A stretch of 64,000 bases of DNA from an uncultured Verrucomicrobiae bacterium (GCA_963786375.1 CAWAYP010000008.1:659-64658); one strand, 5' to 3'. Positions 1-20,117 are shown, counted from the stretch's first letter. Translations and numbers: made by a program. The notes: generated from the letters alone by a model not told the origin.

Positions 1-1922
1 ACGCCGAGCTGAGCAGCATTACCAATCTATCCGTGCAATTTTCCGCCTACAACGGGAACCATCCTTTGCAGCAAGTTGATTTGTTTGTGGATGGGACGTA
101 TTACTGCACATTGACCAACCCGGTTCCGTGTCCCGGCAATCTATTGACCGTTATCCTGAATGGCTATCCCATCACTTACACAGTCCCCACCAACTCAACC
201 TTAAGCACAATCACAACCGGATTGGCGGCCCTCATCAACACCGACACCAACGCCACACAGGTCAAGGCCTTGAGTCATGGCGACCGTATTGAACTGCAAT
301 CCATCGCCGGCTATTCAACGTTGGCCCCGTTCTATGTCGCGGATAACACTCCCAAAATCCGCCGGGCCTCTCCTACAGCGTCAATTATCTGCCTGATTCA
401 ACCCCGCCGCAGATGCTGCCCGGTCGTCCTGGCACAAGCGGGGCCTTCACGATGGCGGCGGGGCCTTCCAGCGCATTGCCTTATGTAATTTTGGCCTCAA
501 CCAATTAATGGATTGGCTGCCCATCTACACGAACTCGGTGCCGGGGCTACTGAATTTTACCGATTTCGACTCCACGAACTATGCCGCGCGCTTTTATCGC
601 ATGACCTGGCCGGACGCGGATCGCCTACCGAATTGTCCGCGCCACAGTTTGTGGGTTCGGGCACATTCCAGTTGCATGTGGACAGTGTGGCTGGTTTGCC
701 GTGGGCCATCCAAACCTCCCCGGACCTTGTTAATTGGATGTCCATCTTTACCAATCAACTTGGCGGAGCGATGGACTTTGTTGATGGCAACGCGACGAAT
801 GTCGGCGGTGAAGTTTATCGGGTTTGGCATGTGCCGCCGACGCCGCCCGGCTTTACAGTGCTTGATTGACAACTAACCTCACCTTGGCCCGCGTGGACAG
901 TGCCGTGCAGCCTTACGTGGTTGAAGTCTCCACGAACCAAGGCCAATCTACCGTGCTGGCAACCAACTTTAACCTTGCCAATTTTAACCTTGGTGCAATT
1001 CAAACCACTGCCGCCAGTGGATGGAAGTGGAGAAAGTCTCGCAACTTTTCTGCGCGCCAGCCAACCCACCTTGCTGGCCTCGGGAGCGCTCGGTTTCCAG
1101 GAATCTTTGAGGTGCGCAATTCGATTCCCGCCAATTCTTGGATGGAGTTCACTTTTATCAAAACCAACGGCCAGTCTGTGGTCGTGGCCGTCACCAATCG
1201 GTCTTCTGGCAATTCCGTCGCGCTCGCCGCGCAACTGTTCACCTCGATAAACGCGAATTCCGCCTTGCAGGGCAGTGACGGTGTTGAGGCCGAGGATTAT
1301 ATTGTGAGCCAATACGGCACGTTCTTCTTCACCTCCTTTAATCTGTATGCCCGGAGTGCCGGCTACCAGGCTGCTGCAATACAAGCAATCCCCACTGTGT
1401 CGTCCTTCAGAGTTCCCTCGTTCACGTCGGGGGGCAGCACCCTCACCGCGAACCTGTCCGATCTTGAGCCTCGAAACCATCTTTACGTCACAGCCGGCGC
1501 GTCCAGTTTGTCCCTGACTTTCCCCTTGGACACCACAACCCTGCCTGACGGTTATCACACCTTGACGGCGGTCGCCTACGAAGGCAGCAACTGCGGACCG
1601 AAACCCAGGTGACAGTGCCCGTCACGATCCAAAATAGTTCCTTGAGCGCAACGTTGACGCTGCTCGACCTGACCAATCAAGCTCCAGTGCAAGGCACCTA
1701 CCACATCCAGGTTGATGCCAACACCAACACCGTGAGCTTGATCACCTTGTTCAGCAACGGCGGCGCGCTGGGCATGGCCACCAACTCACCCACGGCGGTC
1801 TTCCAGGTGAATGGAGCGGGTTTGGGGCCGGACTGCTCCCTTTCTATGCTCTCGTTCAGACTTCTGACGGACTCGAGTATCGCACGCAAACGCAATGGAT
1901 CCAACTGGGGTCCACGCCGTAG
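1..1922 (+). pseudogene. Frameshifted, window-truncated inverted duplicate of the large secreted protein gene at 15125..18142(-)
   Basis: nt 1-120 read identical to the reverse complement of 16936-17055. ORF pieces 33-488, 513-869, 866-1612 and 1609 onward carry the same peptide (QFSAYNGNHPLQQVDLFVDGTYYC...) in changing frames. The first break is a C4->C3 run difference at 351-353. Confidence 0.85.
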
Positions 1923-2016
1923 CGGGTTGAAACCTGCTTTCCGGGCAACCCGGCGGCGGAAGATTTGCCCGACTTCATCTTCCGCCAGTTTTGCATCGGC
2001 AAATAATGTTGAAGGT

Positions 2017-2321
2017 TCAACTCCACTTCTGGCCCATCCCGTCAATCCCGCTGCGCTTCAAGTCGTCCGGTGTCATCGCGATGCGAAATTCAACATCGGC
2101 CTGAAAGTCAGAAACCAGGGCTCTGCCAATACCGGGATTTTCGAAGTGTCGGGCAAATCCACAATGAGTACGGCCCCTCGCTGGCCGTTTTGCTCGGTGA
2201 AATAAACCGCCTCCGGTTTGATGGTTTCCAGAATTTTGTTCAACTTTGCTCCCACCGAACCGTTTTTGACCGCCGCGTTGAATGGTTGAGGGGGAATTCT
2301 GACATTCATTAACATACGCAT
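2017..2321 (-). pseudogene. Frameshifted copy of the 101-aa conserved hypothetical gene at 14725..15030
   Basis: The first 72 codons of ORF 2073-2321 are identical to the 14725-15030 product. An A4->A3 run difference at 2104-2106 shifts the frame before the C-terminus. Confidence 0.8.
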
Positions 2322-2534
2322 GATGATTCCTTTGGTTGATATTTAAATTAGACTAACTTTCCAAGTCTGACGGTGCAAAATTGAATAGCAAGCTCGAACG
2401 GCGGCGGAAGATTTGGTCATTCCGTTTTAGGTCAATTTGCATGGGGAAATAGTCACGCGAAGGAGACGATTTCGACTTTGTGCCTGGCAGAAAAGGTTTT
2501 CTGAAAAAGCCTTCGTGGCCTGCGCGTGACACTT

Positions 2535-3772
2535 TTACCAAACTTCCACCGGCCCTTTGGGCACGGGAATTTGTTCGCGTTGGTTGACGGCGGGTTCGTC
2601 GCGCATGAAGGACGCGACCATCGGCGGCGGACGGAAGCGCGGCTGCAATTCGCCGTTCTCGTCGAGAAATTGCCGCCGCCAGCGGATGTAGTTTTCCAGA
2701 ACGTCGTGAAATTCCGCGCGCGTGGAAATCTGCACGACGCGTTTGTTGAATTCGTGGCACGGGCCGAACCGCTTGGCATACCACGGCGCGACTTTGCGGA
2801 ACATCCGGCAGCCGAGTTCCTCGCCAAAAACTTCAATCATCAAATCCAGATGCCGGCACATCACGCGCACGCGCTCGGCAAAGGAAGGGTCAGAAGGGAT
2901 ATTCCTGTCTGTGCCGGAAGTTCGTTCAACGCGGTAGCGTCTTGGAGTGCGGCAGTCCTCTGGCACTTTTCGTGTGCGAACCGTCCATTTAAAATCGGCA
3001 GAGGACTGCCGCACTCCAAAATCTGACGGTTGTTCCGCCATTCAGATATTGCAGCGTGCGCTGGAAAATCCACGGATTATAAAATGCGCCGCGCCCGATG
3101 CTCACGCCGGCGCAGCCGGTTTCATCGAGCATTTTCTTCGCGGCCTGCGGCGTGATGATGTCGCCGTTGCCGATGACGGGAATGTGCTTCACGGCTTCGA
3201 CGACTTTGCGGATGCCGGCGAGGTTCACCGTGCCGCCGAAACCCTGTTCGCGCGTCCGGCCATGGACAAAAATGGCCGCGACGCCGGCATCTTCGAGCGC
3301 GCGCGCCAAATCCGGCGCGGTGAGATTTTCGTCGTCCCAGCCGAGCCGCATTTTGGCCGTCACGGGAATTTTCACGGCGTTGACCATGCCGCGGACGAGC
3401 GCGGCGGTTTTGTCGAGTTCGGTCATCATGGCCGAGCCGCCGCCGACGTTGCAGACTTTGCGGACGGGACAGCCCATGTTGATGTCAATGGAATCGACGC
3501 CGCAGTGCTTCGAGCATGAGCGCGGCGTCGCGCATTTCCTCCGGGCACGGAGCCGAAGAGTTGGACGGCCAGCGGCGAATCGGCCGGCCGGGTTTCAATG
3601 AGCTTGAACGCCTTGGGATTTTTTTCCAGCAGCGAGCGGGCGTTGACCAGATCGGTGGTGCAAAGGCCGACGCCGCCGATTTCGCGCACGACCAGGCGGA
3701 AGGGCAGGTTGGTGTAACCCGCCAGCGGCGAGAGAAACAGATTGGATTCGATGTCAGCGAACCGAGGCGCAT
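2535..3772 (-). pseudogene. dusB: tRNA-dihydrouridine synthase, frameshifted duplicate of 13274..14509
   Basis: ORF pieces 3485-3772, 3426-3689, 2989-3477 and 2535-3041 together tile the DusB peptide (MGCPVRKVCNVGGGSAMMTEL..., ...PVPKGPVEVW) in different frames. Confidence 0.85.
2942..3022. repeat. Family C long hairpin repeat (GGAGTGCGGCAGTCCTCTG...CAGAGGACTGCCGCACTCC) inside the left dusB copy
   Basis: Self-complementary arms are read directly. It is homologous to 14025-14105, 53930-54008 and 43801-43858. Confidence 0.8.
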
Positions 3773-3870
3773 GGTTTGATTATAGCAGATTGATTGACAT
3801 TGGCGAGAAAAGCGAATTCGCGCATTGCGGAAGCGAGAACGGCATGTTAGCTTGGCATGCCAAAGTAAAA

Positions 3871-5930
<2,060 letters not shown>

Positions 5931-5939
5931 GATTTTAAG

Positions 5940-6662
5940 TTACTGCGAACCTTCCGGTTCCAGCACCACCCGGAACCCGTAGTCGTTTTTGGTTTTGTCA
6001 GGAGCTGAATACTCACGAAAGGCAATCCGTGCATTGATGTCAATGTACGTGTCCCAGGCGCCGCCGCGCAAAACATGATAGGGTTTGTCCTGCGGATCAA
6101 GGCACCATTCCATGACGTTGCCGCGCGTGTCATAAAGGCCGAGATGGTTCGCCCCCAAACTTCCCACCGGCTCGGTGGAGGAACGGCGTTGCAAATTCAA
6201 GCTCGTCACCGCATCGCTCAGGGAAGCATCGTCCACGAGCTGTTCCCATTGGGCCTGCGTTGGCAAGGTATAGATGTAACCTTTCGGCAATTCTTCAGCC
6301 TTTTGTTCCTTCTCGGTCAGCATTTTGCAGAACGACGTGGCGTCGTTCCAGTTCACGGAGTCCACCGGATGATCTTCGCCTTGAAACGCACTGGGGTTGC
6401 CCGCCATTACTTTTTGATAGGACTTTTGCGTCACTTCATACATGCCGGCCCACAAGGTCGGTGAAATTTTCACCAGCACGATGCCGACGGTGTTGGTCAC
6501 CTGGTCGTTTTGGGCCATCAATTCCTTGAGTGTGGGCGGCGCGTTGGTGTCGCTGTCGGAGGTCGTCGTGTCCTGTGTGTCTTCCTGCGCGTGGCATAAG
6601 GCTGGCAGGGAAGACAGCAAAGCCATGGTCAAAAGTGCGATAATTCTCCGGTTTATTTTCAT
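5940..6662 (-). CDS. Secreted formylglycine-generating-enzyme (FGE/SUMF1)-type sulfatase-modifying-domain protein
   Basis: Intact ORF with signal peptide MKINRRIIALLTMALLSSLPALCHA and FGE-type motifs (HPVDSVNWNDATSFC, GNVMEWCLD, RVLRGGAW, YGFRVV). The ATG at 6662 is preferred over the ORF-track start at 6710. Confidence 0.75.
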   Translation of the reverse strand: MKINRRIIALLTMALLSSLPALCHAQEDTQDTTTSDSDTNAPPTLKELMAQNDQVTNTVGIVLVKISPTLWAGMYEVTQKSYQKVMAGNPSAFQGEDHPVDSVNWNDATSFCKMLTEKEQKAEELPKGYIYTLPTQAQWEQLVDDASLSDAVTSLNLQRRSSTEPVGSLGANHLGLYDTRGNVMEWCLDPQDKPYHVLRGGAWDTYIDINARIAFREYSAPDKTKNDYGFRVVLEPEGSQ

Positions 6663-6716
6663 AACGCAAACAAGCTTGTGGTTGGCAATCAAGGTCACAT
6701 AGCAAGCCACGTGCCG

Positions 6717-7241
6717 TTACGGGGAGTTTTCAGGGGGCTTCAAGTCCTCCGCCAAAAAACGGGCCACGTCCTTGAACCAGGCGGCGTTATCGGGATTCAC
6801 GGCCATAAGCGACTGATGGGCTTCCAGACAGGTGCGTGTGATTTCTCCGCGGGTCGGATTCGTGGAATTCGGTGTTTGCGTTTGGACATCATCAGGCAAC
6901 TGCAACGTCCCGCTGATTACTTTGAAAAGATGCAACACCCCCAGATTTTCAAGCAGGTCCGTGATGCGCGGGCTGGGATTCAGCAATTCAATCTCGCGTT
7001 TGTCCGGCGCGGTGGACTGATTCAGCTTCAATCCGAACCCGGCCAGGATGCCGAGAAACGTGCTGTCCATGAGCGCGCATTCGGACAGGTCAATGATGAG
7101 ATGGCCGTAACCCTTCTGTGCCAGTTCGGTCAGCAGCATTTTGAAATCGGGGCCGTACGTGAAATTGGCACGGCCCATGATTTTCACGCAGGCGAAACGC
7201 TCGCATGCCATTACCAGTATTTTTGCCGCCGAAGTTGCCAT
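6717..7241 (-). CDS. STAS-domain protein (anti-sigma-factor antagonist-like)
   Basis: Intact 174-aa ORF. The segment GHLIIDLSECALMDSTFLGILAGF followed by NPSPRITDLLENLGVLHLF is typical of SpoIIAA/STAS folds. Confidence 0.6.
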   Translation of the reverse strand: MATSAAKILVMACERFACVKIMGRANFTYGPDFKMLLTELAQKGYGHLIIDLSECALMDSTFLGILAGFGLKLNQSTAPDKREIELLNPSPRITDLLENLGVLHLFKVISGTLQLPDDVQTQTPNSTNPTRGEITRTCLEAHQSLMAVNPDNAAWFKDVARFLAEDLKPPENSP

Positions 7242-7258
7242 ATTTTAAATTCTTCCTT

Positions 7259-8403
7259 TTACGCGGCGGCGGCCTGCGGCGTGACGATTTGCACCAGGGT
7301 TTGCTGCAGGACCAACGTCTCGTCGAGGCCGCTGGACACCAGCCGCTGGTTGCAGCGCAGCAACAAATCCATCGCCCGGATCAATTCGGCCTCGGTATAA
7401 CGTTTCACCTGCGGCAGCGCTTTGAAAAGCACATACGGATTCAGTGCCAGCGGATTGAAACGGCGGTCGCCGGGCAGCTGGTCCGCCGGGACGCGCTCGA
7501 AGTTGCCCCTTGAAACGGTTGTAATCCGTCTCCGGCTTGATCCAGCCTTCGCGCAGCATTTCCTTCAACAACAGCATCGCGCGGACTTTGGCGATCAAAC
7601 CATAGAGCAGGCCGATTTCGGATTTCTTGCGAATCGAACTTTACCTCCCACAATTCCTCGTCCAGCCGCCGCAGCAAACGGGGCAAATCGCGGTCGCCCA
7701 GGGCGTCGCCGAGCGCAAAGGCCCGCGCCGTCTTGTTCCGGACGCAAACCGCATTGACGTCACCGGCCTCGATTTCTTTCGGTCGCCCGCGAACAAAGGC
7801 GAGTTTCTCAATTTCATTGTCGAGCTGGCGCGCGATTGGGTCCCACGCGGCTGACCAGTTCCGCCAGGGCTTCCTCGGAAATTTCCTTCTTGCGCTCGCG
7901 CACGGCTGTTCGCGCCGCAACTTCCGCGCGCTCCGCCCAGTCGCGGTCGTCGACCGACCAGCCGGCAAGGCTTTCGACCGAACCGATTTTGTCGAGCGTC
8001 TTGAAAAACGTTTTGCGTTTGTCCACCTTGCCCGCGCTGATCAAAAGCCGGATGCCGCTGTTGCCGACCACGCGAACGCCTTCAATTCCTCCGCCAGACT
8101 CGGCCAGCGATTCGGTGACCGCCTGGGCGGACGCCACCCGCTCCTCGCCGAGAAAATTGCAATCGCGCAGCCAGATGACCTTGCCCGTGCCGAAAAACGG
8201 CAGGGTTTGCAATGCTTCGCGCAAGACGGGCAATGGCGGCGAGGGCTTCGCCACTGTTGGAAACGGTGGCCTCGATGATTTCGTGATCCATGCCCCCGAT
8301 TTCCTCGCACCATTGCTGGTAGAGTTGTCTGGGCGCGCTGCTTGATGGCGAACTCGTCGTCACCACAAATGAGAGCCAGTGATGGGGTTTCGGCGGCGGG
8401 CAT
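7259..8403 (-). pseudogene. holA: DNA polymerase III delta subunit, frameshifted
   Basis: HolA-like peptide pieces (LALICGDDEFAIKQRA, LREALQTLPFFGTGKVIWLRDCNFL, KVDKRKTFFKTLDKIG, ARAFALGDALGDRDLPRLLRRLDEEL, IAKVRAMLLLKEMLREGW, ..LQQTLVQIV) lie in ORFs 8041-8403, 8082-8366, 7814-8254, 7441-7968 and 7245-7598, in shifting frames. Confidence 0.7.
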
Positions 8404-8404
8404 T

Positions 8405-8488
8405 TTATTCAGCCTCGCTGCCGGTTTCGTTGATCCGGTTCAGCACTTCGCTCATGTCCTCGACCTGCTCAAAGAGGGAGGCGGCCAC
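8405..8488 (-). pseudogene. 3'-terminal remnant (about 27 codons) of a bifunctional-nuclease (BFN/DUF151)-like gene, cut at the palindrome centre
   Basis: The reverse complement reads VAASLFEQVEDMSEVLNRINETGSEAE*. This parallels the tail of the right-arm copy (NALFEQVEDMSEILERINENGGETE*). Confidence 0.5.
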
Positions 8489-8489
8489 A

Positions 8490-8646
8490 AAAATCGTCGA
8501 GATTGACGCGCGCCCCAGCGATTGCCTGGCCCTGGCCACCGCGCAGAAAACGCCCCATTTACGTCACCAACGCGCTCTTCGAACAAGTCGAGGACATGAG
8601 CGAAATCCTCGAGCGAATCAATGAAAACGGCGGCGAGACCGAATAG
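8490..8646 (+). pseudogene. 5'-truncated, frameshifted bifunctional-nuclease (BFN/DUF151)-like gene fragment
   Basis: It reads KIVEIDARPSDCLALA, then after a frame change PIYVTNALFEQVEDMSEILERINENGGETE*. DaRPSDaiALA..aPIyV is the C-terminal signature I associate with BFN domains. Confidence 0.5.
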
Positions 8647-8649
8647 GAA

Positions 8650-9794
8650 ATGGCCCCATCTGCCGCAAGCAGTCTGCCCCGTGGTGCTGGTCTGCGGTGA
8701 GGATGAGTTTGCCGTCAAGCAGCGAGCCAAAGAGATTATACCGCAGTGGACGCGAGGAACTGGGCGGCATGGACCACGAAATCATCGATGCCGGCGTCTC
8801 CAACAGCGGCGAAGCCCTCAAGACCTGCGCCGACTGCGCGAGGCGCTCCAGACCCTGCCCTTCTTCGGCACCGCCAAGGCCATCTGGCTCCAGAACTGCA
8901 ATTTCCTCGGAGACGAACGAGTCGCCCTGGCGCCAGGATGTCACCGAATCCCTCGCCTACCTGGCGCAGGAACTCAAGGAGTTCTCCTGGCAAAACGTCC
9001 GCCTGCTCATCAGCGCCGGAAGGTGGACAAGCGCAAGGTTTTCTACAAAACGCTCGACAAGCTCGGCACCGTCGAGAATCTTCGCCGCGATGGTCCGTGG
9101 ATGACCGGGATTGGGCGAACCAGGCGGAAGCCTGGGCGCGCAAGGCGTTGCGCGCCCGCCAAAAGGAGATTTCCGACGAGGCCCTGGCCGAACTGGTCAA
9201 CCGGGTCGGCCCGAACGCCCGCCAACTGGACAACGAAGTCGAGAAGCTCGCGCCTCTACGTCGGCGACCGGCCAGGAAATCGAAATGGCGGACGTGGCGG
9301 CCGTTTGCACCCGGAACAAGACGGCGCGGGCCTTTGCCCTGGGCGATGCCCTGGGAGACCGGGACCTGCCGCGTCTGCTGCGGTGCCTGGACGAGGAGTT
9401 GTGGGAGGTAAAGCTCGATCCGCAGAAATCGGAAATCGGCCTGCTCTACGGCCTGATTGCCAAAGTGCGCGCGATGATCCTGCTGAAGGAGATGCTGCGC
9501 GAAGGCTGGATCAAGCCGAGAGGCGGATTACAACCGTTTCAAGGCCCAACTGGAGCGCGTCCCGGCGGAGCAGTTGCCCGCAAGACCGCCGTTTCAACCC
9601 GCTGGCGCTCAATCCTTATGTGCTTTTCAAAGCCCTGCCGCAAGTCAAGCGATACAGCGCAGGCCGAATTGATTCGGCGCGATGGAACTCCTGCTGCAGT
9701 GCAACCAGCGCCTGGTGTCCAGCGGCCTGGACGAATCGCTGGTGTTGCAGCAAGCACTGGTGCAGATTGTGGCGCCGCGGCGGCCGCCGCGTAA
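8650..9794 (+). pseudogene. holA: DNA polymerase III delta subunit, frameshifted (right-arm copy)
   Basis: HolA pieces (VVLVCGEDEFAVKQRAKEI, LREALQTLPFFGTAKAIWLQNCNFLGDERVA, KVDKRKVFYKTLDKLGTVENL, ISDEALAELVNRVGPNARQLDNEVEKLA, ARAFALGDALGDRDLPRLLRCLDEELWEV, MELLLQCNQRLVSSGLDESL) alternate among the frames of ORFs 8621-9799, 8697-9104, 8746-9411, 9111-9794 and 9682-9918. Confidence 0.7.
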
Positions 9795-9808
9795 GTTGAA
9801 AAGCAACC

Positions 9809-10332
9809 ATGGCGCGTCCCCGGCCAAAATCTCGGTCTGGCGGCGGGCACTTCGCCTGCGTCAGAATCACCGGCCGGGCCAATTTCACGTCCGGCCCCGA
9901 TTTCAAGACCCTCCTTGACGAACTGGCGCAAAGGGGCTACGGGCATCTCGTCCTCGACCTCTCCGAATGCACGCTCATGGACAGCACGTTTCTGGGCGTC
10001 CTGGCCGGATTCGGATTGAAGCTGAATCCAGTCCGCCGCGCCGGACAAACGCGAGATTGAATTGCTGAATCCCAGCCCGCGCATCACGGACCTGCTTGAA
10101 AATCTGGGGGTGTTGCATCTTTTCAAAGTAATCAGCGGGACGTTGCAGTTGCCTGATGATGTCCAAACGCAAACACCGAATTCCACGAATCCGACCCGCG
10201 GAGAAATCACGCGCACCTGTCTGGAAGCCCATCAGTCGCTTATGGCCGATGAATCCCGATAACGTCGCCTGGTTCAAGGACGTGGCCCGATTTTTCGCGG
10301 AGGACTTGAAGCCCCCTGAAAACTCCCCGTAA
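9809..10332 (+). pseudogene. STAS-domain protein, frameshifted duplicate of 6717..7241
   Basis: ORFs 9809-10060 and 10062-10262 plus a third frame reproduce the STAS peptide. One break is an extra C (aatccag versus aatcag) near 10026. The 3' half is identical in peptide to the left copy. Confidence 0.8.
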
Positions 10333-10388
10333 CGGCACGTGGCTTGCTATGTGACCTTGAATTGCCAACCACAGGCTTTGTTTGCGTT

Positions 10389-11115
10389 ATGAAAATAAAC
10401 CGGAAAGTTTCGCGTTTTTGGCCATGGCTGTGATGTTGTCCCTGCCGGCCTTTTGGCTCGCGCGCAGGAAGACACACAGGACACGACGACCTCCGACAGC
10501 GACACCAACGCGCCGCCCACACTCAAGGAATTGATGGCCCAAAACGACCAGGTGACCAACACCGTCGGCATCGTGCTGGTGAAAATCTCACCCGGACTTT
10601 GGGCCGGAAAATTTGAAGTGACGCAGGACGCCTATCAAAAGTTGATGCACTCCAATCCCAGCGCATTTCGCGGCGATGACAGGCCGGTGGATTCGGTGAG
10701 CTGGAACGACGCGATGGCGTTTTGCGGGAATGCTGACCAAAAGGAAAAAAAGGCTGAAGAATTGCCCGACGGTTATGTCTATTCGCTCCCGACGCAGGAT
10801 CAATGGTTCATGCTCATGGACGATGCTACCCTCGACCATGCCGTGATGAGCCTGAACCTCCAGCGCCACGTTCCTCAACCGAGCCGGTCGGCAGTCTGGG
10901 GGCGAACCAGCCTCGGCCTTTATGACACGCGCGGCAATGTCATGGAATGGTGCCTTGATCCGCAGGACAAACCTTATCGCGTTTTGCGCGGCGGCGCATG
11001 GGACACGTTCATTGACATCAATGCCCGGATTGAATTTCGTGATTACTCGCTCCGGACAAAACCAAAAACGACTACGGGTTCCGGGTGGTGCTGGAACCGG
11101 CAAGGTTCGCAGTAA
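10389..11115 (+). pseudogene. FGE/SUMF1-type domain protein, frameshifted and diverged duplicate of 5940..6662
   Basis: ATG at 10389 (MKINRK..) hits a stop after 14 codons. ORF 10453-11115 resumes with AQEDTQDTTTSDSDTNAPPTLKELMAQNDQVTNTVGIVLVKISP, identical to the left copy. The core is diverged and the C-terminus is out of frame (..KPKTTTGSGWCWNRQGSQ). Confidence 0.8.
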
Positions 11116-11312
11116 CTTAAAATCTCAAACCGGCGCGGGCGCCGGAGTGCCAAGACCGGGCAATTTCGGCGGCACGGGTTTGGGCGGTGTTTCAGGCAGG
11201 GGCGTGCCTGCCGGCGCGCCCATGATATTCCACTTTCGGCTTGGGCGGCGGCGGCGTGAATTTGCCGGTTTTGACAATTTCCTCGACTTGCGCCCGATCA
11301 AGCGTTTCGTGT

Positions 11313-12965
11313 TCAAGCAGCGCGCTGGCAATCAATTCCAGCTTGTCGCGGTTGGTCAAAATAATATTCTTGCGCCCGCTTGTAGCCATCATCAATGAGG
11401 CGCTTGATCTCCTCGTCAATTTCCCGCGCCGTGCTTTCGCTGTAAACCTTCGTGCGCGCCATTTCACGGCCGAGGAAAACAAACTCATCGTCACTGCCGT
11501 ATTGCACCATGCCGACCTTGTCACTCATGCCATACTGGCAAACCATTGCGCGCGCCAGATTCGTCGCCTGTTGGATGTCCATGGCCGCGCCCGTTGAAAT
11601 ATCGCCCGAAACAATTTCCTCGGCGATGCGCCCGGCCATGGTCACGGCGAGGTCGTCAAACATTTCCTTGCGCCGCCGGTTCAAAATATCCTTTTCCGGC
11701 AACTGCATGGTTGAGCCCAGCGACTGCCCGCGCGGAATGATCGTGACCTTGTGCAGGGGATGCGTGTGTTCCAGCAACACGTTCACCAGCGCGTGGCCGG
11801 CTTCGTGCCAGGCGGTGCATTTTTTCTCCTCGTCGGTCATCGCGAGGCTGCGGCGCTCGCGGCCCCAGCGGACCTTGTCGCGCGCCTCCTCCAGTTCTTC
11901 CATGCCGACGGATTTTTTATTAGTCCGCGCGGCGAGCAGGGCGGCTTCATTCAACAAATTCGCCAGCTCCGCGCCGGAATAACCCGGCGTGCCGCGCGCG
12001 ATGATGGACAAGTCCGCCTCCGGCGCGAGTTTTACGTTCTTGGCGTGGACTTTCAAAATTGCCTCGCGCCCGCGCACGTCCGGCAGATTGACCACCACCT
12101 GCCGGTCGAAACGGCCCGGACGCAACAGGGCCGGGTCGAGCACGTCCGGCCGGTTGGTCGCGGCGATGATGATGATGCCTTCCTGCGTGTCAAAGCCGTC
12201 CATCTCGACGAGCAACGCATTGAGGGTTTGTTCGCGCTCGTCATTGCCGCCGCCGAGGCCGTGCCCGCGCGAACGGCCGACCGCGTCAATTTCGTCAATA
12301 AAAACCAGGCACGGCGTGTTGCGGCGCGCCTGTTCGAACATATCGCGCACGCGGCTGGCGCCGACGCCCACGAACATTTCCACGAAATCCGAACCGCTGA
12401 TGCTGAAAAACGCCGCGTCCGCCTCGCCGGCGATGGCCTTGGCCAGCAGTGTTTTGCCCGTGCCGGGCGCGCCCACCATCAGGACGCCCTTCGGAATTCG
12501 TCCGCCTAGCTTTTGAAATTTCTTCGGGTCCTTCAAAAACTCCACCAGCTCGGAAACCTCTTCGATGGCTTCCTCGACTCCGGCCACCTCTTTAAACGTT
12601 GTTTTGTTCCGGTCCTTCGCCAGCATCCGGGCCTTGCTTTTGCCAAAACTCAGCGCGCCCTTCCCGGCGATTTTGATCTGCCGGATGAAGAAAAACCAAA
12701 ACAAAAGGGCGATCAACACAAACGGCGCGACACTCCAAAGCACACTCATCAACATCGTGTTGGGCTGGCTCGCGCTGATCTTGTCCGAGGCGAACAATTG
12801 GTCCTCCTTGTCCTGGCTGAGATAGGCGTTTTTGACCACAAACGGCACCTCCACCGGCTGGCCGTTTTGTTTGACAATATTTCCATCCTTGTCGGTCTGG
12901 TAATATGAACCGTTGATCTCCGTCAGGGGAGCCGTCTGCGGATTAAAACTGACCGTCGCCTGCAC
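11313..12965 (-). CDS. ftsH: ATP-dependent zinc metalloprotease FtsH (core ORF; the full locus 11125..13173 needs three +/-1 frame corrections)
   Basis: Motifs present: Walker [14 protein letters not shown], Walker [16 protein letters not shown], zinc site [11 protein letters not shown]2 [12 protein letters not shown]1 lies in ORF 12943-13173. The conserved C-terminal helix ([23 protein letters not shown]) and Pro-rich tail lie in ORFs 11192-11524 and 11125-11331. Confidence 0.85.
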
Positions 12966-13273
12966 GATCTGGCTGGCGGAACTTTTTGAAAAACTCGGCT
13001 TGAGACAGGGTGCCCACCTGCGTCGCCATGTGGTCGCGCAGCAGCATCAACGCCACAATGCTGCCAATGATGGCAATCCACGCCACCCACGTTGTCGGCG
13101 GCAATTTGAATCCACCCGCCGGCTTTTTGGGGCCACGATCGTTTTCTTTATTATTTTGATTCTCGTCGAACATTTTTACTTTGGCATGTCAAGCTAACAT
13201 GCCGTTCTGGCTTCCGCAATGCGGGAATTCGCTTTTCTCGCCAATGTCAAAATCAATCTGCTATAATCAAATC

Positions 13274-14509
13274 ATGCGCCTTGGCTTGTTGACGGTGCCG
13301 TCCAATCTGTTTCTGTCGCCGCTGGCGGGTTACACCAACCTGCCTTTCCGGCTCGTCGTGCGCGAAATCGGCGGCGTCGGCCTTTGCACCACCGATCTGG
13401 TCAACGCCCGCTCGCTCCTCGAAAAAAATCCGAGGGCATTCAAGCTCATCGAAACCCGGCCGGCCGATTCGCCGCTGGCCGTCCAGCTTTTCGGGTCCGT
13501 CCCGGAGGAAATGCGCGACGCCGCACTCCTGCTTGAAGCACAGGGTGTCGCCGCCATTGACATCAACATGGGCTGTCCCGTCCGCAAAGTCTGCAACGTC
13601 GGCGGTGGCTCGGCCATGATGACCGAACTGGCCAAAACCGCCGCGCTTGTCCGCGGCATGGTCAGCGCCGTGAAAATTCCAGTGACGGCCAAGATGCGGC
13701 TCGGCTGGGACGACGAAAATTTGACCGCGCCGGATTTGGCGCGTGCGCTCGAAGACGCCGGCATCGCGGCAATCTTTGTTCACGGGCGGACGCGCGAACA
13801 GGGTTTCAGCGGCACGGTGAACCTCGCCGGCATCCGCAAAGTCGTCGAAGCCGTGAAGCACATTCCCATCATCGGCAACGGCGACATCATCACGCCGCCG
13901 GCCGCAAAGAAAATGTTCGATGAAACCGGCTGCGCCGGCGTGAGCATCGGCCGTGGTGCTTTCTATAATCCGTGGATTTTCCAGCACACGCTGGAATACC
14001 TGAATGGCGCGAACAACCGTCAGATTTTGGAGTGCGGCAGTCCTCTGCCGCTTTTAAATGGGCGGTGCGCACACGAAAAGCGCCAGAGGACTGCCGCACT
14101 CCAAGACGCTACCGCGTTGAACGAAGCTTCCGGCACAGACAGGAATATCCCTTCTGACCCTTCCTTTGCCGAACGTGTGCGCGTGATGTGCCGGCATCTG
14201 GACTTGATGATTGAAGTTTTTGGCGAGGAACTCGGCTGCCGGATGTTTCGCAAGGTCGCGCCGTGGTATGCCAGGCGTTTCGGCCCGTGCCACGAATTCA
14301 ACAAACGCGCCGTGCAGATTTCCACTCGCGCGGAATTTCAAGATGTTCTGGAAAACTACATCCGCTGGCGCAGGCAATTTCTCGACGAGAACGGCGAATT
14401 GCAGCCGCGCTTCCGTCCGCCACCGATGGTTGCGTCCTTCATGCGCGCGCCGGCGGCAACAACGCGCGAACAAATTCCCGTGCCCAAAGGGCCGGTGGAA
14501 GTTTGGTAA
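13274..14509 (+). CDS. dusB: tRNA-dihydrouridine synthase B carrying an in-frame hairpin-repeat insert
   Basis: Intact ORF from MRLGLLTVPSNLFLSPLAGYTNLPFR, with INMGCPVRKV and IGRGAFYNPWIF. The ATG at 13274 is preferred over the track start at 13181. Confidence 0.85.
   Translation: MRLGLLTVPSNLFLSPLAGYTNLPFRLVVREIGGVGLCTTDLVNARSLLEKNPRAFKLIETRPADSPLAVQLFGSVPEEMRDAALLLEAQGVAAIDINMGCPVRKVCNVGGGSAMMTELAKTAALVRGMVSAVKIPVTAKMRLGWDDENLTAPDLARALEDAGIAAIFVHGRTREQGFSGTVNLAGIRKVVEAVKHIPIIGNGDIITPPAAKKMFDETGCAGVSIGRGAFYNPWIFQHTLEYLNGANNRQILECGSPLPLLNGRCAHEKRQRTAALQDATALNEASGTDRNIPSDPSFAERVRVMCRHLDLMIEVFGEELGCRMFRKVAPWYARRFGPCHEFNKRAVQISTRAEFQDVLENYIRWRRQFLDENGELQPRFRPPPMVASFMRAPAATTREQIPVPKGPVEVW
14025..14105. 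repeat. Family C long hairpin repeat translated in frame within dusB (..ILECGSPLPLLNGRCAHEKRQRTAALQD..)
   Basis: ggagtgcggcagtcctctgccgc ... gcgccagaggactgccgcactcc form roughly 20-nt complementary arms. The same element occurs intergenically at 53930-54008. Confidence 0.85.
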
Positions 14510-14724
14510 AAGTGTCACGCGCAGGCCACGAAGGCTTTTTCAGAAAACCTTTTCTGCCAGGCACAAAGTCGAAATCGTCTCCTTCGCGTGACTATTTCCC
14601 CATGCAAATTGACCGAAAACGGAGTTGAGCAAATCTTCCGCCGCCGTTCGGAGCTTGCTATTCAATTTTGCACCGTCAGACTTGGAAAGTTAGTCTAATT
14701 TAAATATCAACCAAAGGAATCATC

Positions 14725-15030
14725 ATGCGTATGTTAATGAATGTCAGAATTCCCCCTCAACCATTCAACGCGGCGGTCAAAAACGGTTCGGTGGGAGCAA
14801 AGTTGAACAAAATTCTGGAAACCATCAAACCGGAGGCGGTTTATTTCACCGAGCAAAACGGCCAGCGAGGGGCCGTACTCATTGTGGATTTGCCCGACAC
14901 TTCGAAAATCCCGGTATTGGCAGAGCCCTGGTTTCTGACTTTTCAGGCCGATGTTGAATTTCGCATCGCGATGACACCGGACGACTTGAAGCGCAGCGGG
15001 ATTGACGGGATGGGCCAGAAGTGGAGTTGA
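14725..15030 (+). CDS. Small conserved hypothetical protein (101 aa)
   Basis: Intact ORF MRMLMNVRIPPQPFNAAVKNG...; no family is recognised with confidence. Confidence 0.55.
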   Translation: MRMLMNVRIPPQPFNAAVKNGSVGAKLNKILETIKPEAVYFTEQNGQRGAVLIVDLPDTSKIPVLAEPWFLTFQADVEFRIAMTPDDLKRSGIDGMGQKWS

Positions 15031-15124
15031 ACCTTCAACATTATTTGCCGATGCAAAACTGGCGGAAGATGAAGTCGGGCAAATCTTCCGCCGCCGGGTT
15101 GCCCGGAAAGCAGGTTTCAACCCG

Positions 15125-18100
15125 CTACGGCGTGGACCCCAGTTGGATCCATTGCGTTTGCGTGCGATACTCGAGTCCGTCAGAAGTCTGAACGAGAGCA
15201 TAGAAAGGGAGCAGTCCGGCCCCTAAACCCGCTCCATTCACCTGGAAGACCGCCGTGGGTGAGTTGGTGGCCATGCCCAGCGCGCCGCCGTTGCTGAACA
15301 AGGTGATCAAGCTCACGGTGTTGGTGTTGGCATCAACCTGGATGTGGTAGGTGCCTTGCACTGGAGCTTGATTGGTCAGGTCGAGCAGCGTCAACGTTGC
15401 GCTCAAGGAACTATTTTGGATCGTGACGGGCACTGTCACCTGGGTTTCGGTCCGCACGTTGCTGCCTTCGTAGGCGACCGCCGTCAAGGTGTGATAACCG
15501 TCAGGCAGGGTTGTGGTGTCCAAGGGGAAAGTCAGGGACAAACTGGACGCGCCGGCTGTGACGTAAAGATGGTTTCGAGGCTCAAGATCGGACAGGTTCG
15601 CGGTGAGGGTGCTGCCCCCCGACGTGAACAAGGGAACTCTGAAGGACGACACAGTGGGGATTGCTTGTATTGCAGCAGCCTGGTAGCCGGCACTCCGGGC
15701 ATACAGATTAAAGGAGGTGAAGAAGAACGTGCCGTATTGGCTCACAATATAATCCTCGGCCTCAACACCGTCACTGCCCTGCAAGGCGGAATTCGCGTTT
15801 ATCGAGGTGAACAGTTGCGCGGCGAGCGCGACGGAATTGCCAGAAGACTGATTGGTGACGGCCACGACCACAGACTGGCCGTTGGTTTTGATAAAAGTGA
15901 ACTCCATCCAAGAATTGGCGGGAATCGAATTGCTAAGCTCCAAGTATTCCTGGAAACCGAGCGCTCCCGAGGCCAGCAAGGTGGGTTGGCTGGCGCGCAG
16001 AAAAGTTGTGAGACTTTCTCCACTTCCAATCGCACTGGCGGCAGTGGTTTGAATTGCACCAAGGTTAAAATTGGCAAGGTTAAAGTTGGTTGCCAGCACG
16101 GTAGATTGGCCTTGGTTCGTGGAGACTTCAACCACGTAAGGCTGCACGGCACTGTCCACGCGGACCAAGGTGAGGTTGGTCGTCACATCAAGCACTGTAA
16201 AGCCGGGCGGCGTCGGCGGCACATGCCAAACCCGATAAAATTCACCGCCGACATTCGTCGCGTTGCCATCAACAAAGTCCATCGCTCCGCCAAGTTGATT
16301 GGTAAAGATGGACATCCAATTAACAAGGTCCGGGGAGGTTTGGATGGCCCACGGCAAACCAGCCACACTGTCCACATGCAACTGGAATGTGCCCGAACCC
16401 ACAAACTGTGGCGCGGACAATTCGGTAGGCTGATCCGCGTCCGGCCAGGTCATGCGATAAAAGCGCGCGGGATAGTTCGTGGAGTCGAAATCGGTAAAAT
16501 TCAGCAGCCCCGGCACCGAGTTCGTGTAGATGGGCAGCCAATCCATTAAATTGGTTGAGGCCAAAATTACATAAGGCAATGCGCTGGGAATCCCCGCCGC
16601 CATCGTGAAGGCCCCGCTTGTGCCAGGACGACCGGGCAGCATCTGCGGCGGGGTTGAATCAGGCAGATAATTGACGCTGTAGGAGAGGCCCGGCGCATTT
16701 TGGGGAGTGTTATCCGCGACATAGAACGGGGCCAACGTTGAATAGCCGGCGATGGATTGCAGTTCAATACGGTCGCCATGACTCAAGGCCTTGACCTGTG
16801 TGGCGTTGGTGTCGGTGTTGATGAGGGCCGCCAATCCGGTTGTGATTGTGCTTAAGGTTGAGTTGGTGGGGACTGTGTAAGTGATGGGATAGCCATTCAG
16901 GATAACGGTCAATAGATTGCCGGGACACGGAACCGGGTTGGTCAATGTGCAGTAATACGTCCCATCCACAAACAAATCAACTTGCTGCAAAGGATGGTTC
17001 CCGTTGTAGGCGGAAAATTGCACGGATAGATTGGTAATGCTGCTCAGCTCGGCGTTGACGAGGTTGGTATCCCATTCTCCGTCACCCACCCGGGCAAAGG
17101 GCGCGGCCAGGGGTTCACCCACAATCAACCCAAGATACGGCGCATTGATGCTCTGATAATAGCTCTCGGCCAGACTGAAGCCGCGGGCCTGATAAAAATA
17201 ATCCTGGGGGTTGGGAAACTTCTGCGTGTCGTCTTCAGGCTCCACCACCGTGCCATAACTGCCGGCCGCGCCGGCATTGATGAAGGCCAGCAAGTTCGTC
17301 TGGCTGTTGGCGCCGAAAATGATGCCGCCGTAGGATGTCATACTGTCCGCAATGGCACCCGGAACAAAAGTGCTTTGCGGGACGCTGAATTGCGCCAGAC
17401 CCGTTTCATAGCCCAAGCAGCCGTTTGGCCACAAGACGGAATCGGTGTTGGTGCGCAGAATTGAGGAAACCCCCAGAATATTCACGTTGAAAATGGCATT
17501 GTCGAAAAACGGATAACGGATGTTCCGGAGTGTGTCGGAGCTTTTGGCCAAGACCACCGGTTGTTGGGGACGGGTCCCATCGCTTTCAACTCCCTGATCC
17601 ACCAATGCTTCCGCCTGGGCCAGTGAATCAGCCGTGATCATGGTGGTGAGAAAGGAATAGCCGGGCGCGCCGACGGGTGTCGCCTGGCGGAATACCGCTT
17701 CGCTGGCGGCATAACTGTTGGTGACACCCAATGGATCGCTCCCGTCACCCTGTCTGGAGCCATAGAACAAAGCCGAGGTCGTGCCGTTGACCACGGAGCC
17801 AAAGCTGGTCTGGAACGGGATATCCATCGAGAGAACAACGTAATCAATCTGGTTAGTCAACTGGCGGGCCGCCAGCATGTTCAACAAGGGCATTACCAGA
17901 TTGGTTTGAAGATCATTGCTGGCCCACAATGTGTTGCCGCCCGCCCAGTTGATGTATAACACATTTTGAGGCGGCACTTGGCGCTGTTCACAGAAGTAAT
18001 TGCCCAGTTCACATGAATTTGAACTGGCCTGGTTGATGACGACAACCGTGTTCAAGCCGCTGCCGCCAGCCTGTAGCCTGAATGCCAGGACACAATTCAA

Positions 18101-18288: not shown

Positions 18289-19179
18289 TCAGGATGTCTG
18301 ACGGCTCCGCGCTAATCCCAAGGCACCCAAGCCCAGCGCGATTAAAGCCATGGTGGTCGGTTCCGGAACAGTCATAACTTTCAAGCCTTTGTCTTTGCTT
18401 ATGTCCTCCTCGTCGCCTGGGTTTAGCGTTGCGTCCCATTGGAACGCCCACGACACATCGCCAGTAACCGCCGAGGTATTGTCGCTGAGGTTGAAATTTA
18501 GACTAGCCGGGTTATTGAGTTCGTTCAGCGTTGTGGGGACCAGCGCAGCTTCGGCGTAGTTTGCGTTCGGTGATTCAATGACTTCAGCAATTCCCGTCCC
18601 GCCCGGCCCGCCAGTCGTTTGGAAGGCTGAGGTATACGCACCAGGATTGCCGGAAATGCTCACAGTATTGTTGTTGTTCTGCAGCAAATTGAAATTGGAA
18701 TATTGGTAGAAGTTCAAATCCACAATTTGATCGGAATAGTTATCGATCCATATGTACTCCATCATATCGGCAGATCCAGAGTTGGCGCCGTTACCGTGCA
18801 AAACGTAATCAACATTCACTTGCACTCCATTGGCTGCTCCATAGGTCACGGTAAGGTTATTGGGCCCGTTGTAGGAAGTGCTCAACTCGCCAAGTTGATC
18901 AATGGACAGCGGAGCGCTACCGTTGATTGAATACCAAAACCATTGTTGGTCCAACTGGCTCTGAGAAACGCCCCCCACAGTCCAGCTGTTCATCCCGATG
19001 CTGCCAGTGCCGCCAGAGCCGGCGCCTAGATTCAGTGTCGCCGCAGACCCTCCGTCACTAAGCGGGAAATTTTGAGCCATGCCCTTGCCTGGCAAAAGCA
19101 AAACTCCTGTCCCGACCAATGCGGCACACAGGAACGCGACGGCTCTACTTTTTAAATAAATTTCACGATGTGCTTTCAT
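18289..19179 (-). CDS. PEP-CTERM sorting-domain secreted protein
   Basis: Signal peptide plus C-terminal VPEPTTMALIALGLGALGLARSRQTS (the PEP motif, a TM helix and a basic tail). Confidence 0.8.
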   Translation of the reverse strand: MKAHREIYLKSRAVAFLCAALVGTGVLLLPGKGMAQNFPLSDGGSAATLNLGAGSGGTGSIGMNSWTVGGVSQSQLDQQWFWYSINGSAPLSIDQLGELSTSYNGPNNLTVTYGAANGVQVNVDYVLHGNGANSGSADMMEYIWIDNYSDQIVDLNFYQYSNFNLLQNNNNTVSISGNPGAYTSAFQTTGGPGGTGIAEVIESPNANYAEAALVPTTLNELNNPASLNFNLSDNTSAVTGDVSWAFQWDATLNPGDEEDISKDKGLKVMTVPEPTTMALIALGLGALGLARSRQTS

Positions 19180-19256: not shown

Positions 19257-20117
19257 TTAGTTTCTTCGTCGCCTGCACACCAGGGCCACGGCCAACATTC
19301 CCGCCGAAACCAACGCCACGGACGAAGGTTCAGGCACCGTGATTGTTTGTGTTTGACTGATTGTAAATGAGCTGCCCCCCTGCAGGCCTGTCACATCCCA
19401 TTCATAGGCAAAAACCGCGTTCCCCGAAGCAGTGAGGGTTATGTCGTTAAGCGGATTGGGAGACCCATTCAATGGCCCAAATGGAGCCCCACCGTTGTCC
19501 GCCTGCATTTCGGTCGTAGCTCCTCCAATTGGTTGCAATAAATCTTGAAGCGACGCCCCTCCCCCGGTCTGATAGGCTTGGTATTGGGAAGGGTTGCTGA
19601 GAATGGACATTTGTACATTCTGGCTTCCCGAAACGTTTCCCAAGACAAAATCCGAGTATTGATAGAAAATTATGTTTGCGCTGCTGCTGGGATCATTGTT
19701 GTTGTTGATGTATATCGTAGGGGTCAAAGAATATGTATTGCCAGAAATACCTAGAACATAGTTGAAATTAGCCGTGAATCCTGAACCCAAATTATACCAG
19801 ACATTTAACTGATTATAGGATGACCCTACTCTTGACACGGCTTCTGAAGTAAACATGGAGCTATTTAACTCAGTTACTCCAGAACCCAAATTAAAATAAA
19901 ACGTTTCTTGGCTCAATTGATCCACGCCACTCACCGTCCAATAGTCCAACCCGGCATTGGGGTCGAACCCCAAATTGGAAATGTGGCCGCTGAGGCTTTT
20001 GGTAATGTTTGTAACCTGCGCCTCGCTTTGAACGACAAAGCCGGCGAGTAAAAACGCAAATAGAGCACCTTGAAACAACCGCGCCCTGCTTACGAATGAT
20101 TTCTTCAAAATCTTCAT
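19257..20117 (-). CDS. PEP-CTERM sorting-domain secreted protein (paralog-like neighbour)
   Basis: C-terminal VPEPSSVALVSAGMLAVALVCRRRRN. The likely start MKILKKSF is at 20117. Confidence 0.8.
   Translation of the reverse strand: MKILKKSFVSRARLFQGALFAFLLAGFVVQSEAQVTNITKSLSGHISNLGFDPNAGLDYWTVSGVDQLSQETFYFNLGSGVTELNSSMFTSEAVSRVGSSYNQLNVWYNLGSGFTANFNYVLGISGNTYSLTPTIYINNNNDPSSSANIIFYQYSDFVLGNVSGSQNVQMSILSNPSQYQAYQTGGGASLQDLLQPIGGATTEMQADNGGAPFGPLNGSPNPLNDITLTASGNAVFAYEWDVTGLQGGSSFTISQTQTITVPEPSSVALVSAGMLAVALVCRRRRN

Follow-up and report, generated by a model that had tools for sequence, protein, structure and literature searches.

Introduction

In living cells, palindromes and tandem inversion duplications (TIDs) arise by snap-back at quasi-palindromes near breaks, as in the Salmonella TIDs, the Tetrahymena rDNA palindrome and the fold-back inversions of yeast and tumours. 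Mixed or diploid assemblies are prone to haplotype switch errors and to retained duplicate haplotigs, and chimeras of the MDA type have slightly offset junctions that share a short microhomology. Fold-back (inverted-repeat) chimeric reads are a known long-read artefact that accounts for 0.18-7.33% of the reads of ligation libraries, seeds palindromic contig ends and is reported to tangle assembly graphs (PMC13141652, PMC12870357). Palindromic (inverted) chimeras are also made in vitro by strand-displacing or template-switching polymerases, e.g. in MDA (PMC13265396), and PMC13273997 deals with haplotype-mixed assemblies.

Here we analysed a window of 64,000 nucleotides (the whole stretch of DNA under study) from an uncultured Verrucomicrobiae bacterium, which lies on a contig of 93,806 nt and begins with a long inverted repeat. 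As in a fold-back chimeric read, a sequence and then its reverse complement are linked by a junction that the true genome would lack; unlike in such a read, the arms are not the two strands of one molecule but carry two haplotypes reciprocally, and instead of turning bluntly at the end of a fragment, the junction is asymmetric, with an 8-nt microhomology and a 55-nt spacer. Like MDA-type chimeras, the locus is joined in inverted orientation at a short, slightly offset microhomology, and template switching between molecules could place one haplotype on one side and the second on the other; there was, however, no sign of an amplified sample. As with retained haplotigs, two alleles of one locus were assembled, switches fall at similar stretches and the minor haplotype has the poorer consensus, although the duplicate is here attached inverted to the primary contig and does not form a separate one. 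The short inverted repeat, single-copy spacer and long inverted arms are also those of biological snap-backs, whose arms are identical at birth and come from one genome, whereas the present arms are 72-100% identical, derive from two lineages and form a structure that is missing from same-strain assemblies.

Results

Extent of the repeat and identity of its arms

Using blastn, positions 1-8496 were aligned to the reverse complement of 8489-17055 with 90.3% identity over 8661 columns (E=0; 720 mismatches and 93 gap openings), and the inverted duplication of ~8.5 kb per arm described in an earlier note on this DNA is thus present in the sequence. The gene content and order are the same in both arms, as had been stated: nuclease tail, holA, STAS, FGE-like gene, ftsH, dusB, a 101-aa gene and a large secreted protein, the nuclease tail being the 3' part of the BFN (bifunctional nuclease) gene. 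At position 1 the left arm is cut by the edge of the window, inside which 8496 nt of it lie. The perfect match previously seen between nt 1-120 and the reverse complement of 16936-17055 is even longer, with 1-357 being 100% complementary to 16699-17055. Identity between the arms is ~100% at 1-2400, 91-95% in dusB and ftsH and, in the inner 2.5 kb, 72-86% apart from an island of 98% at 6715-6964; by gene it ranges from 72% to 98%, and divergence reaches 28%. The graded divergence proposed earlier was not borne out, as the pattern is that of a mosaic and has no smooth gradient.

Two haplotypes in reciprocal arrangement

We denote as haplotype X the sequence equal to that of the sister assemblies, and as haplotype Y a diverged lineage 82-91% identical to it. 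At 709 of the 740 inter-arm substitution sites (96%), exactly one arm matches the same-strain reference. The right arm is non-reference (Y) at 8640-11101 and reference (X) from ~11290 on, and the left arm is the opposite, so that outward of the switch in the 3' end of ftsH the left arm is Y and the right X, and inward the right is Y and the left X. The arms are therefore reciprocal patchworks of two haplotypes, rather than two diverged copies. The switches lie at about 5900 (left) and about 11200 (right); the latter is ragged, with X and Y alleles interleaved at 11152-11288 and no clean crossover. Isolated departures from the pattern occur at 11326-11724 (right arm) and 8669-9933 (left arm), some of which may be private SNPs.

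Features of the two arms and the axis (window coordinates, strand):
1..1922, plus: large secreted-protein gene, 3' two-thirds, left copy; X-like, 9 one-base gaps and 18 mismatches against the reference
2017..2321, minus: 101-aa gene, left copy; broken by one 1-nt deletion, 0 mismatches and 1 gap against reference locus L001
2535..3772, minus: dusB, left copy; haplotype Y, frameshifted, 84 mismatches and 16 gap columns against L001
3871..5930, plus: ftsH, left copy; haplotype Y, many 1-nt indels, 189 mismatches and 21 gap columns against L001
5940..6626, minus: FGE-sulfatase-like gene, left copy; haplotype X, intact, 1 mismatch and 0 gaps against L001 (ORF 5940-6710)
6717..7211, minus: STAS gene, left copy; haplotype X, intact, 2 mismatches and 0 gaps against L001 (ORF 6717-7241)
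7259..8403, minus: holA, left copy; X-like, frameshifted, 30 mismatches and 9 gap columns
8405..8496, minus: BFN 3' tail, left copy; ends at the equivalent of L001 3838
8487..8496, no strand: fold-back junction (ACAAAAATCG); the 8-nt AAAAATCG is common to both arm alignments
8489..8646, plus: BFN 3' tail, right copy; haplotype Y
8497..8551, plus: single-copy 55-nt spacer, the putative snap-back loop; Y-type BFN coding sequence
8648..9794, plus: holA, right copy; haplotype Y, heavily frameshifted, 260 mismatches and 31 gap columns against L001
9837..10332, plus: STAS gene, right copy; haplotype Y, 3' half 98% identical to X
10424..11115, plus: FGE-like gene, right copy; haplotype Y, frameshift near the 3' end, 70% amino acid identity to the X protein
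11101..11290, no strand: haplotype switch zone at the 3' end of ftsH; interleaved X and Y alleles
11125..13173, minus: ftsH, right copy; haplotype X except for the 3' ~170 nt, 9 Y alleles at 11780-12578
13274..14509, plus: dusB, right copy; haplotype X, 0 mismatches and 0 gaps against the reference
14725..15030, plus: 101-aa gene, right copy; identical to the reference
15125..17055, minus: large secreted-protein gene, right copy, part in the repeat; 1 mismatch and 0 gaps, ORF 1108 aa

The right-arm gene for the large secreted protein extends to 18451, beyond the repeat. Indels in the switch zone, together with one inserted nucleotide at 12977, disrupt the right-arm ftsH and leave an ORF of 550 aa compared with 682 aa in L001. 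In the left-arm holA, about half of the deviations are Y alleles, and quality drops towards the axis. Frameshifts had been ascribed to both arms, which is correct for holA and ftsH, broken in each; the left-arm STAS (6717-7211) and FGE (5940-6626) genes, by contrast, are intact and essentially identical to the reference.

Substitutions in Y are biased to third codon positions (25/17/91 at codon positions 1/2/3 in ftsH and 16/17/54 in dusB), an enrichment of 3-5 times. At 145 of the 284 X/Y differences of the outer segment, the Y allele is one common to 8 other relatives; in this segment, Y is 85% and X 85-87% identical to other relatives. Given the third-position bias and the Y alleles found in other relatives, Y is a genuine lineage and not noise. 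It was not found as an independent organism in proteins, GTDB genomes or JGI contigs: no Y-type FGE above 71-73% identity was detected among 5.8 billion proteins (best non-self match 71%) or GTDB representative genomes (best 73%), and neither of two Y-specific 26-mers occurred in JGI metagenome contigs.

The locus in same-strain assemblies and relatives

In two same-strain assemblies, ENA ERZ25039529 contig_10664 (504 kb) and NCBI GCA_049686435.1, the block is present in single copy with all genes intact (holA 342/379 aa, ftsH 682 aa, dusB 411 aa), and complete BFN, KTSC and metH genes lie upstream of it. Outside the Y stretches of the arms, the window is 99.9% identical to these assemblies over ~50 kb (9 mismatches and no gap along 21,131 nt; 13 mismatches and 2 gaps along another 14,490 nt), and the right arm has 0 mismatches to the same-strain reference along most of its span. 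Loci L001 and L002 run continuously through metH-KTSC-BFN-holA across the position of the axis. Synteny comparison, proposed earlier as a check, gave the single-copy order in 28 related genomes and the inverted repeat in none; BFN, with KTSC and metH beyond, is continuous in 27 of the 28, and the remaining short locus (L028) spans only FGE and ftsH. No inverted repeat of at least 300 bp was found in 85 loci. No intact holA or ftsH remains in the window, where the X-type copies are frameshifted too; in the same-strain assemblies both are intact.

Distribution of one-base indels

Nearly all length differences between the arms are of 1 nt. It had been claimed that every traced shift is a one-base change in a short run; the size holds for almost all, but only about half lie in short runs, the rest having a non-repetitive context. 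The ~8.6 kb made up of Y sequence and the surroundings of the axis contain ~105 indel columns, compared with ~3 in ~49 kb elsewhere, i.e. rates of ~1% against ~0.006% in the flanks, a difference of ~200 times. Y carries 44 private indel events, mostly of 1 nt, compared with 0-4 in X and other relatives, where several are multiples of 3; the indels are private to this contig. In the left arm, the segment 1244-2241 contains 4 deletions and 1 substitution, and such 1-nt deletions nearly without substitutions in the outer left arm are a signature of error and not of evolution. Three short-read Logan contigs, which come from other runs, align gap-free to the right-arm version with 99.9-100% identity, but their alignment to the left-arm version opens 5-8 gaps. 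For the secreted-protein gene, L001 and L002 likewise align gap-free to the right-arm version and with 5-8 gap openings to the left-arm one. The frameshifts in the arms are most probably errors.

Anatomy of the axis

The repeat is asymmetric at its axis, with an 8-nt microhomology and the 55-nt single-copy spacer. In L001, AAAAATCG (3775-3782) and CGATTTTT (3838-3845) form an 8-nt inverted repeat, and the axis looks like a snap-back turn. It sits within BFN and thereby cuts short a gene whose conservation among relatives is 84-99%. The mismatches of the left-arm X copy, counted per 250 nt outward from the axis, are 17, 4, 6, 2, 1, 2, 0 and 0, and degradation towards the axis is expected if reads were clipped at a false join. 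Quasi-palindrome snap-back junctions occur in living cells too, and a short quasi-palindrome with a single-copy spacer is also seen in in-vitro snap-back artefacts, thus the junction anatomy does not discriminate a genuine duplication from an artefact.

Discussion

We consider it very probable (roughly 0.86) that the palindrome is a sequencing or assembly artefact and no structure of a genome, produced by a fold-back together with the mixing, in a metagenome assembly, of two related populations of soil Verrucomicrobia. One of the two options in the earlier note was an assembly that is folded back or strain-chimeric and has unpolished indels, and our analysis supports both of its parts together, the first through the junction and the second through the two haplotypes with a phase switch. 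On this reading the true locus exists once, in the order metH-KTSC-BFN-holA-STAS-FGE-ftsH-dusB-101aa-big protein. A long chimeric molecule or read, presumably from long-read data, may have snapped back within BFN at the natural 8-nt inverted repeat, either in the library or in the assembly graph, so that the assembler could continue the contig back across this locus as its reverse complement. A second, rarer related population (Y) would also be present in the sample, and the redundant copy of the locus was presumably filled by Y-derived sequence of probably low coverage and the other by the abundant X. X and Y trade arms at a single place, the 3' end of ftsH, and this phase switch makes the arms reciprocal X/Y mosaics. 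The indels breaking holA, ftsH, dusB and other genes would be uncorrected long-read errors in the poorly supported Y sequence and beside the false junction. A simple fold-back read would be expected to give one haplotype in both arms, so X opposite Y needs extra steps, for which haplotype sorting or phase switching during consensus, or in-vitro template switching between molecules, are candidates.

The best of the alternatives, a real strain-specific palindrome in which an 8.5-kb block of a sister species (Y) is joined head-to-head to the resident X, seems to us unlikely. It would require template switching at the 8-nt quasi-palindrome of BFN, a later crossover in ftsH inverting the centre, and decay of the redundant Y genes. 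The junction anatomy is that of a biological snap-back or fold-back inversion, one crossover between inverted repeats would exchange the inner parts reciprocally, exactly as seen, the majority of frameshifts are in Y copies, and Y is not known as a free-living lineage. Against this, the window contains no intact ftsH or holA, both essential, even the X-type copies being frameshifted; the switch is unclean, with interleaved alleles and off-pattern single sites on both arms; the outer left arm differs by 1-nt deletions nearly without substitutions; and the X copy degrades nearing the axis. Moreover, the conserved neighbours BFN, KTSC and metH would have to be deleted or displaced, and the structure is absent from same-strain assemblies that are 99.9% identical.

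That the arms are the same sequence, with all differences being raw noise in a single fold-back read and no second haplotype, is highly improbable. The ~1% of 1-nt indels in random context would fit, as would an outer left arm that differs from the right almost solely by deletions, but noise explains neither the enrichment of substitutions at third codon positions nor an identity that varies with the gene, nor that half of the outer-segment Y alleles occur in other relatives, to which Y is as near as X. Noise alone is thus refuted for 2400-8496 and 8497-11150 and remains the likely account of 1-2400.

The other option of the earlier note, that an inverted segmental duplication is real and old and that both of its arms have diverged where they stand and are in decay, is contradicted by the data and scarcely credible. 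The arms do differ by 10% overall with third-position-biased substitutions, and both contain frameshifts; yet the sister assemblies, which are only ~0.04-0.1% different outside the Y stretches, have a single intact copy and another left neighbour, and the 28 relatives are single copy as well. A duplication younger than the split from the sister assemblies could not have gained 10-28% of selection-filtered divergence in place, the divergence of the arms (up to 28%) exceeding that from the sister assemblies (at most 0.1%), and since one arm equals the reference at 96% of variable sites, divergence of both arms in place is impossible. If a linear replicon ended in a covalently closed hairpin telomere, reading round it would also yield a palindromic contig end, but this is vanishingly improbable, as the axis falls within the coding part of BFN, a gene that in the two same-strain assemblies and 27 of 28 relatives is uninterrupted and has KTSC and metH beyond it, and the arms carry different haplotypes.

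We accordingly regard a fold-back within a mixture of two populations as the best account of the locus. Should one strain physically carry the 8.5-kb block from an unsampled sister species, captured head-to-head at the quasi-palindrome in BFN and with the centre then flipped by a crossover in ftsH, which we hold to be very unlikely, its chromosome would contain a hetero-specific palindrome, with frameshifts now eliminating the redundant copies.

Results

Identity profile of the two arms

A seed-and-extend search within the window linked 1-8500 with 8500-17055 through 44 collinear pairs of inverted matches, and blastn returned a single alignment of 1-8600 against 17055-8451 (8661 columns, 90.3% identity, 720 mismatches, 93 gap openings), both confirming the large inverted repeat claimed in the earlier note. 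At its outer end, 16699-17055 is 100% complementary to 1-357. The gene content named there was likewise recovered by Pfam matches and the gene calls of related contigs. From the axis, the fold-back junction at about 8490, the arms carry outward:

3' tail of a bifunctional nuclease gene (BFN)
holA (DNA polymerase III delta)
STAS-domain gene
FGE-sulfatase-like gene (FGE)
ftsH
dusB
101-aa gene
large secreted protein gene

The divergence, earlier described as graded, proved to be a mosaic with an island of 98% identity. A smooth gradient produced by gene conversion was ruled out, since identity is mosaic and alleles are shared at scattered single sites instead of along tracts.

Table. Arm-to-arm identity by segment.
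1-2400: ~100%
dusB and ftsH: 91-95%
ftsH, N-terminal part: 83-85%
FGE: 75-87%
6715-6964 (STAS 3' half): 98%
holA: 72-78%

The locus in sister assemblies and relatives

An exact look-up of the 101-aa protein yielded two sister assemblies, ENA ERZ25039529 contig_10664 (504 kb; L001) and a 35-kb contig of NCBI GCA_049686435.1 (L002). In both, the block occurs once with all genes intact, in the order metH-KTSC-BFN (150 aa)-holA (342/379 aa)-STAS-FGE-ftsH (682 aa)-dusB (411 aa)-101aa-large protein-PEP-CTERM protein-...-mnmE. Compared with contig_10664, window 23485-44615 shows 9 mismatches and 0 gaps over 21,131 nt, and 46599-61088 shows 13 mismatches and 2 gaps over 14,490 nt; outside the diverged (Y, see below) stretches of the arms, window and sister assemblies share 99.9% identity. 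On sequence identity, both assemblies represent the strain of the window. In the 21-kb stretch, seven of the nine mismatches are packed into about 570 nt (36725-37291), perhaps a small patch of recombination or a spot that varies among strains.

The same single-copy order was found in 28 species-level relatives (Verrucomicrobiia or Limisphaerales-like MAGs) wherever the locus covers those genes, and an inverted repeat of at least 300 bp occurred in none of the 85 related loci fetched. The BFN that the palindrome truncates has 84-99% amino-acid identity across these relatives. Several GTDB representative MAGs with the Verrucomicrobia-type syntenic block (loci L014, L016, L017, L018 and L032) are titled Bifidobacteriaceae, Sulfopaludibacter, Limnocylindrales or Methylomirabilota, which suggests mis-binned contigs or mislabelled bins.

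Reciprocal mosaic of two haplotypes

In a four-way alignment we compared the two sister assemblies (the reference) with both arms, the left one reverse-complemented. Between the outer end and about 11290 it is the right arm that matches the reference, most 250-nt blocks showing 0 mismatches, and the left arm that diverges; between about 11100 and the axis the roles are reversed, the left arm matching (0-6 mismatches per block) and the right arm diverging. Exactly one arm is identical to the reference at 709 of the 740 substitution sites (96%). We refer to the reference-like haplotype as X and to the diverged one as Y. The switch is unclean, with X and Y alleles interleaved over 11152-11288, and isolated single-site departures from the main pattern occur in the right arm (11326-11724) and the left arm (8669-9933); some of these may be private SNPs and not exchanges. 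Furthermore, the right-arm ftsH, of X type, has nine Y alleles (11780-12578) dispersed among about 60 X/Y differences, and its frame is broken by a 1-nt insertion at 12977. Overall, consensus-level mixing is a better fit to the pattern of alleles than one crossover or unbroken conversion tracts.

At the 284 X/Y differences of the outer segment, the majority of eight other relatives share the Y allele at 145 and the X allele at 121. In this segment Y shares 91% identity with X and about 85% with the other relatives, the latter being 85-87% identical to X; in the inner segment the values for Y are 82% (with X) and about 75% (with the others), and the Y-type and X-type FGE proteins share 70% identity. 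Y is a genuine lineage. Among 5.8 billion proteins, the next best non-self matches of the Y-type FGE reached 66-71%, its best match in a scan of GTDB representative genomes was 73%, and two Y-specific 26-mers had no match in JGI metagenome contigs.

Substitutions and one-base indels

Arm-to-arm substitutions at codon positions 1/2/3 number 25/17/91 in ftsH and 16/17/54 in dusB, and because of this strong third-position bias we attribute them to evolution under purifying selection and not to read noise. Length differences between the arms are scattered and nearly all 1 nt, as noted before, but the earlier placement of them in short runs holds only in part, about half lying outside homopolymer runs. 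When ten genomes were aligned, 44 indel events proved private to Y, most of them 1 nt long, compared with 0-4 for X and the other relatives, where several are multiples of three. Gap columns were also counted per gene for each arm separately against the reference.

Table. Gap columns per gene, each arm against the reference.
holA: right arm 31 (Y); left arm 9 (X-like, adjoins axis)
STAS: right arm 3 (Y); left arm 0 (X)
FGE: right arm 9 (Y); left arm 0 (X)
ftsH: right arm 4 (X with switch zone); left arm 21 (Y)
dusB: right arm 0 (X); left arm 16 (Y)
101-aa gene: right arm 0 (X); left arm 1
Large protein: right arm 0 (X); left arm 9

With about 3 gaps in about 49 kb outside the repeat, the indel rate in the Y segments and at the axis is roughly 200 times the background. 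The outer left arm (1244-2241) has four deletions against one substitution, and three short-read Logan contigs from other runs aligned gap-free to the version in the right arm and with 5-8 gap openings to that in the left; judged from these alignments, both observations are an error signature. The X copy of the left arm worsens steadily as the axis is approached: counted from the axis outward in 250-nt steps, its mismatches number 17, 4, 6, 2, 1, 2, 0, 0, about half of them being Y alleles. Such degradation is what read clipping at a false junction produces. The apparent pseudogenisation of holA, ftsH and dusB is an error.

The junction

Alignment of the left arm with the reference extends down to L001 position 3840 and that of the right arm begins at 3775, window 8489-8496 being common to both alignments. 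In the reference, BFN contains AAAAATCG (3775-3782) and CGATTTTT (3838-3845), an 8-nt inverted repeat with a 55-nt spacer, and the window reads rc(...3846)-AAAAATCG-spacer-... across the junction. As read from this order, the junction is the exact product expected of a 3' end that snapped back on the short inverted repeat and was then extended. The junction alone is non-discriminating, such junctions being formed at breaks in living cells as well as in in vitro polymerase steps. Sequence to its left is X-type; the spacer and everything rightward are Y-type, and the partner octamer in Y is degenerate (CCATTTAC). Both a snap-back on an X molecule, whose right-hand slot would later have been overwritten by Y-derived consensus, and a switch between molecules within a mixed DNA preparation would fit the junction.

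Other features of the window

14027-14104: hairpin element of about 80 nt with perfect 21-nt arms (TTGGAGTGCGGCAGTCCTCTG and complement), in frame inside dusB, translating as ...LECGSPLPLLNGRCAHEKRQRTAALQDA...
2942-3019: its left-arm copy
53932-54006: its third copy
18289-19179 and 19257-20147, - strand: two 296-aa PEP-CTERM proteins in tandem (G+C of the stretch 0.49-0.51 versus about 0.58)
about 54059-55846 and 56599-58194, + strand: TPR-sulfotransferase paralogues in tandem (parts of the copies 82-95% similar at nucleotide level)
59715-60338: third PEP-CTERM protein
61908-63371: tyrosine integrase (PF00589)

The Pfam Dus match ends just upstream of the hairpin element, which looks like a REP/MITE-like insertion tolerated in coding sequence and is presumably also present in the same-strain reference, since the right-arm dusB is identical to L001. 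Collinearity with contig_10664 stops at 61088, where that contig carries DDE transposases and a different integrase; window 61089-64000 looks like a strain-specific mobile element.

Discussion

The inverted repeat is almost certainly not a real genomic feature. The single-copy sister assemblies, the X/Y mosaic and the indel distribution support the second option of the earlier note, a fold-back and strain-chimeric assembly with unpolished indels. By the route that we infer, the real locus would be single copy, and a fold-back chimeric molecule or read, presumably from long reads, would have led the assembler back over it. A rare related population (Y), presumably of low coverage, together with poorly supported sequence, would then fill the redundant copy and the abundant X the other, with the assignment to arms switching once. 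This is the simplest account. Among documented artefacts of long-read sequencing are fold-back or inverted-repeat chimeras, which make up 0.18-7.33% of ligation-library reads (PMC13141652) and are reported to tangle assembly graphs (PMC12870357). An inverted De Bruijn-graph loop at a palindromic k-mer (PMC9528984) was considered unlikely, as the microhomology is only 8 nt and the random 1-nt indel profile points to long reads.

Among the alternatives, a real strain-specific, hetero-specific palindrome (a foreign arm, a snap-back junction and then a crossover in ftsH) survives best, yet we consider it very improbable, because it fails to explain why X-type holA and ftsH, both essential, are frameshifted, why the switch is ragged, why the outer left arm differs by deletions only and why quality declines as the axis is approached. 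Read noise alone as the source of all arm differences probably describes 1-2400, but is excluded for 2400-11150 by the codon-position bias and by Y alleles common to other relatives. The other option of the earlier note, an old inverted duplication whose arms decay in place, is excluded, as the sisters, nearly identical outside the Y stretches, carry a single copy that agrees site by site with one arm or the other. A hairpin telomere is excluded because the axis lies inside BFN, which is continuous there in the two same-strain assemblies and 27 of the 28 relatives.

In practice, contig positions 1-8496 (window numbering) should be removed, and about 8497 to 11290 flagged as belonging to another population than the remaining contig. 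Left uncorrected, the artefact inflates duplication and contamination estimates of the genome bin, creates false pseudogenes of essential genes, suggests a spurious rearrangement and masks the true neighbours BFN, KTSC and metH. Reads of a minor related population can settle in a false copy, which then resembles a diverged paralogue, and the reciprocal X/Y pattern is a useful diagnostic of such a false second locus copy in an assembly. The biological weight of the finding is small, the locus being an ordinary conserved housekeeping block of soil Verrucomicrobiia.
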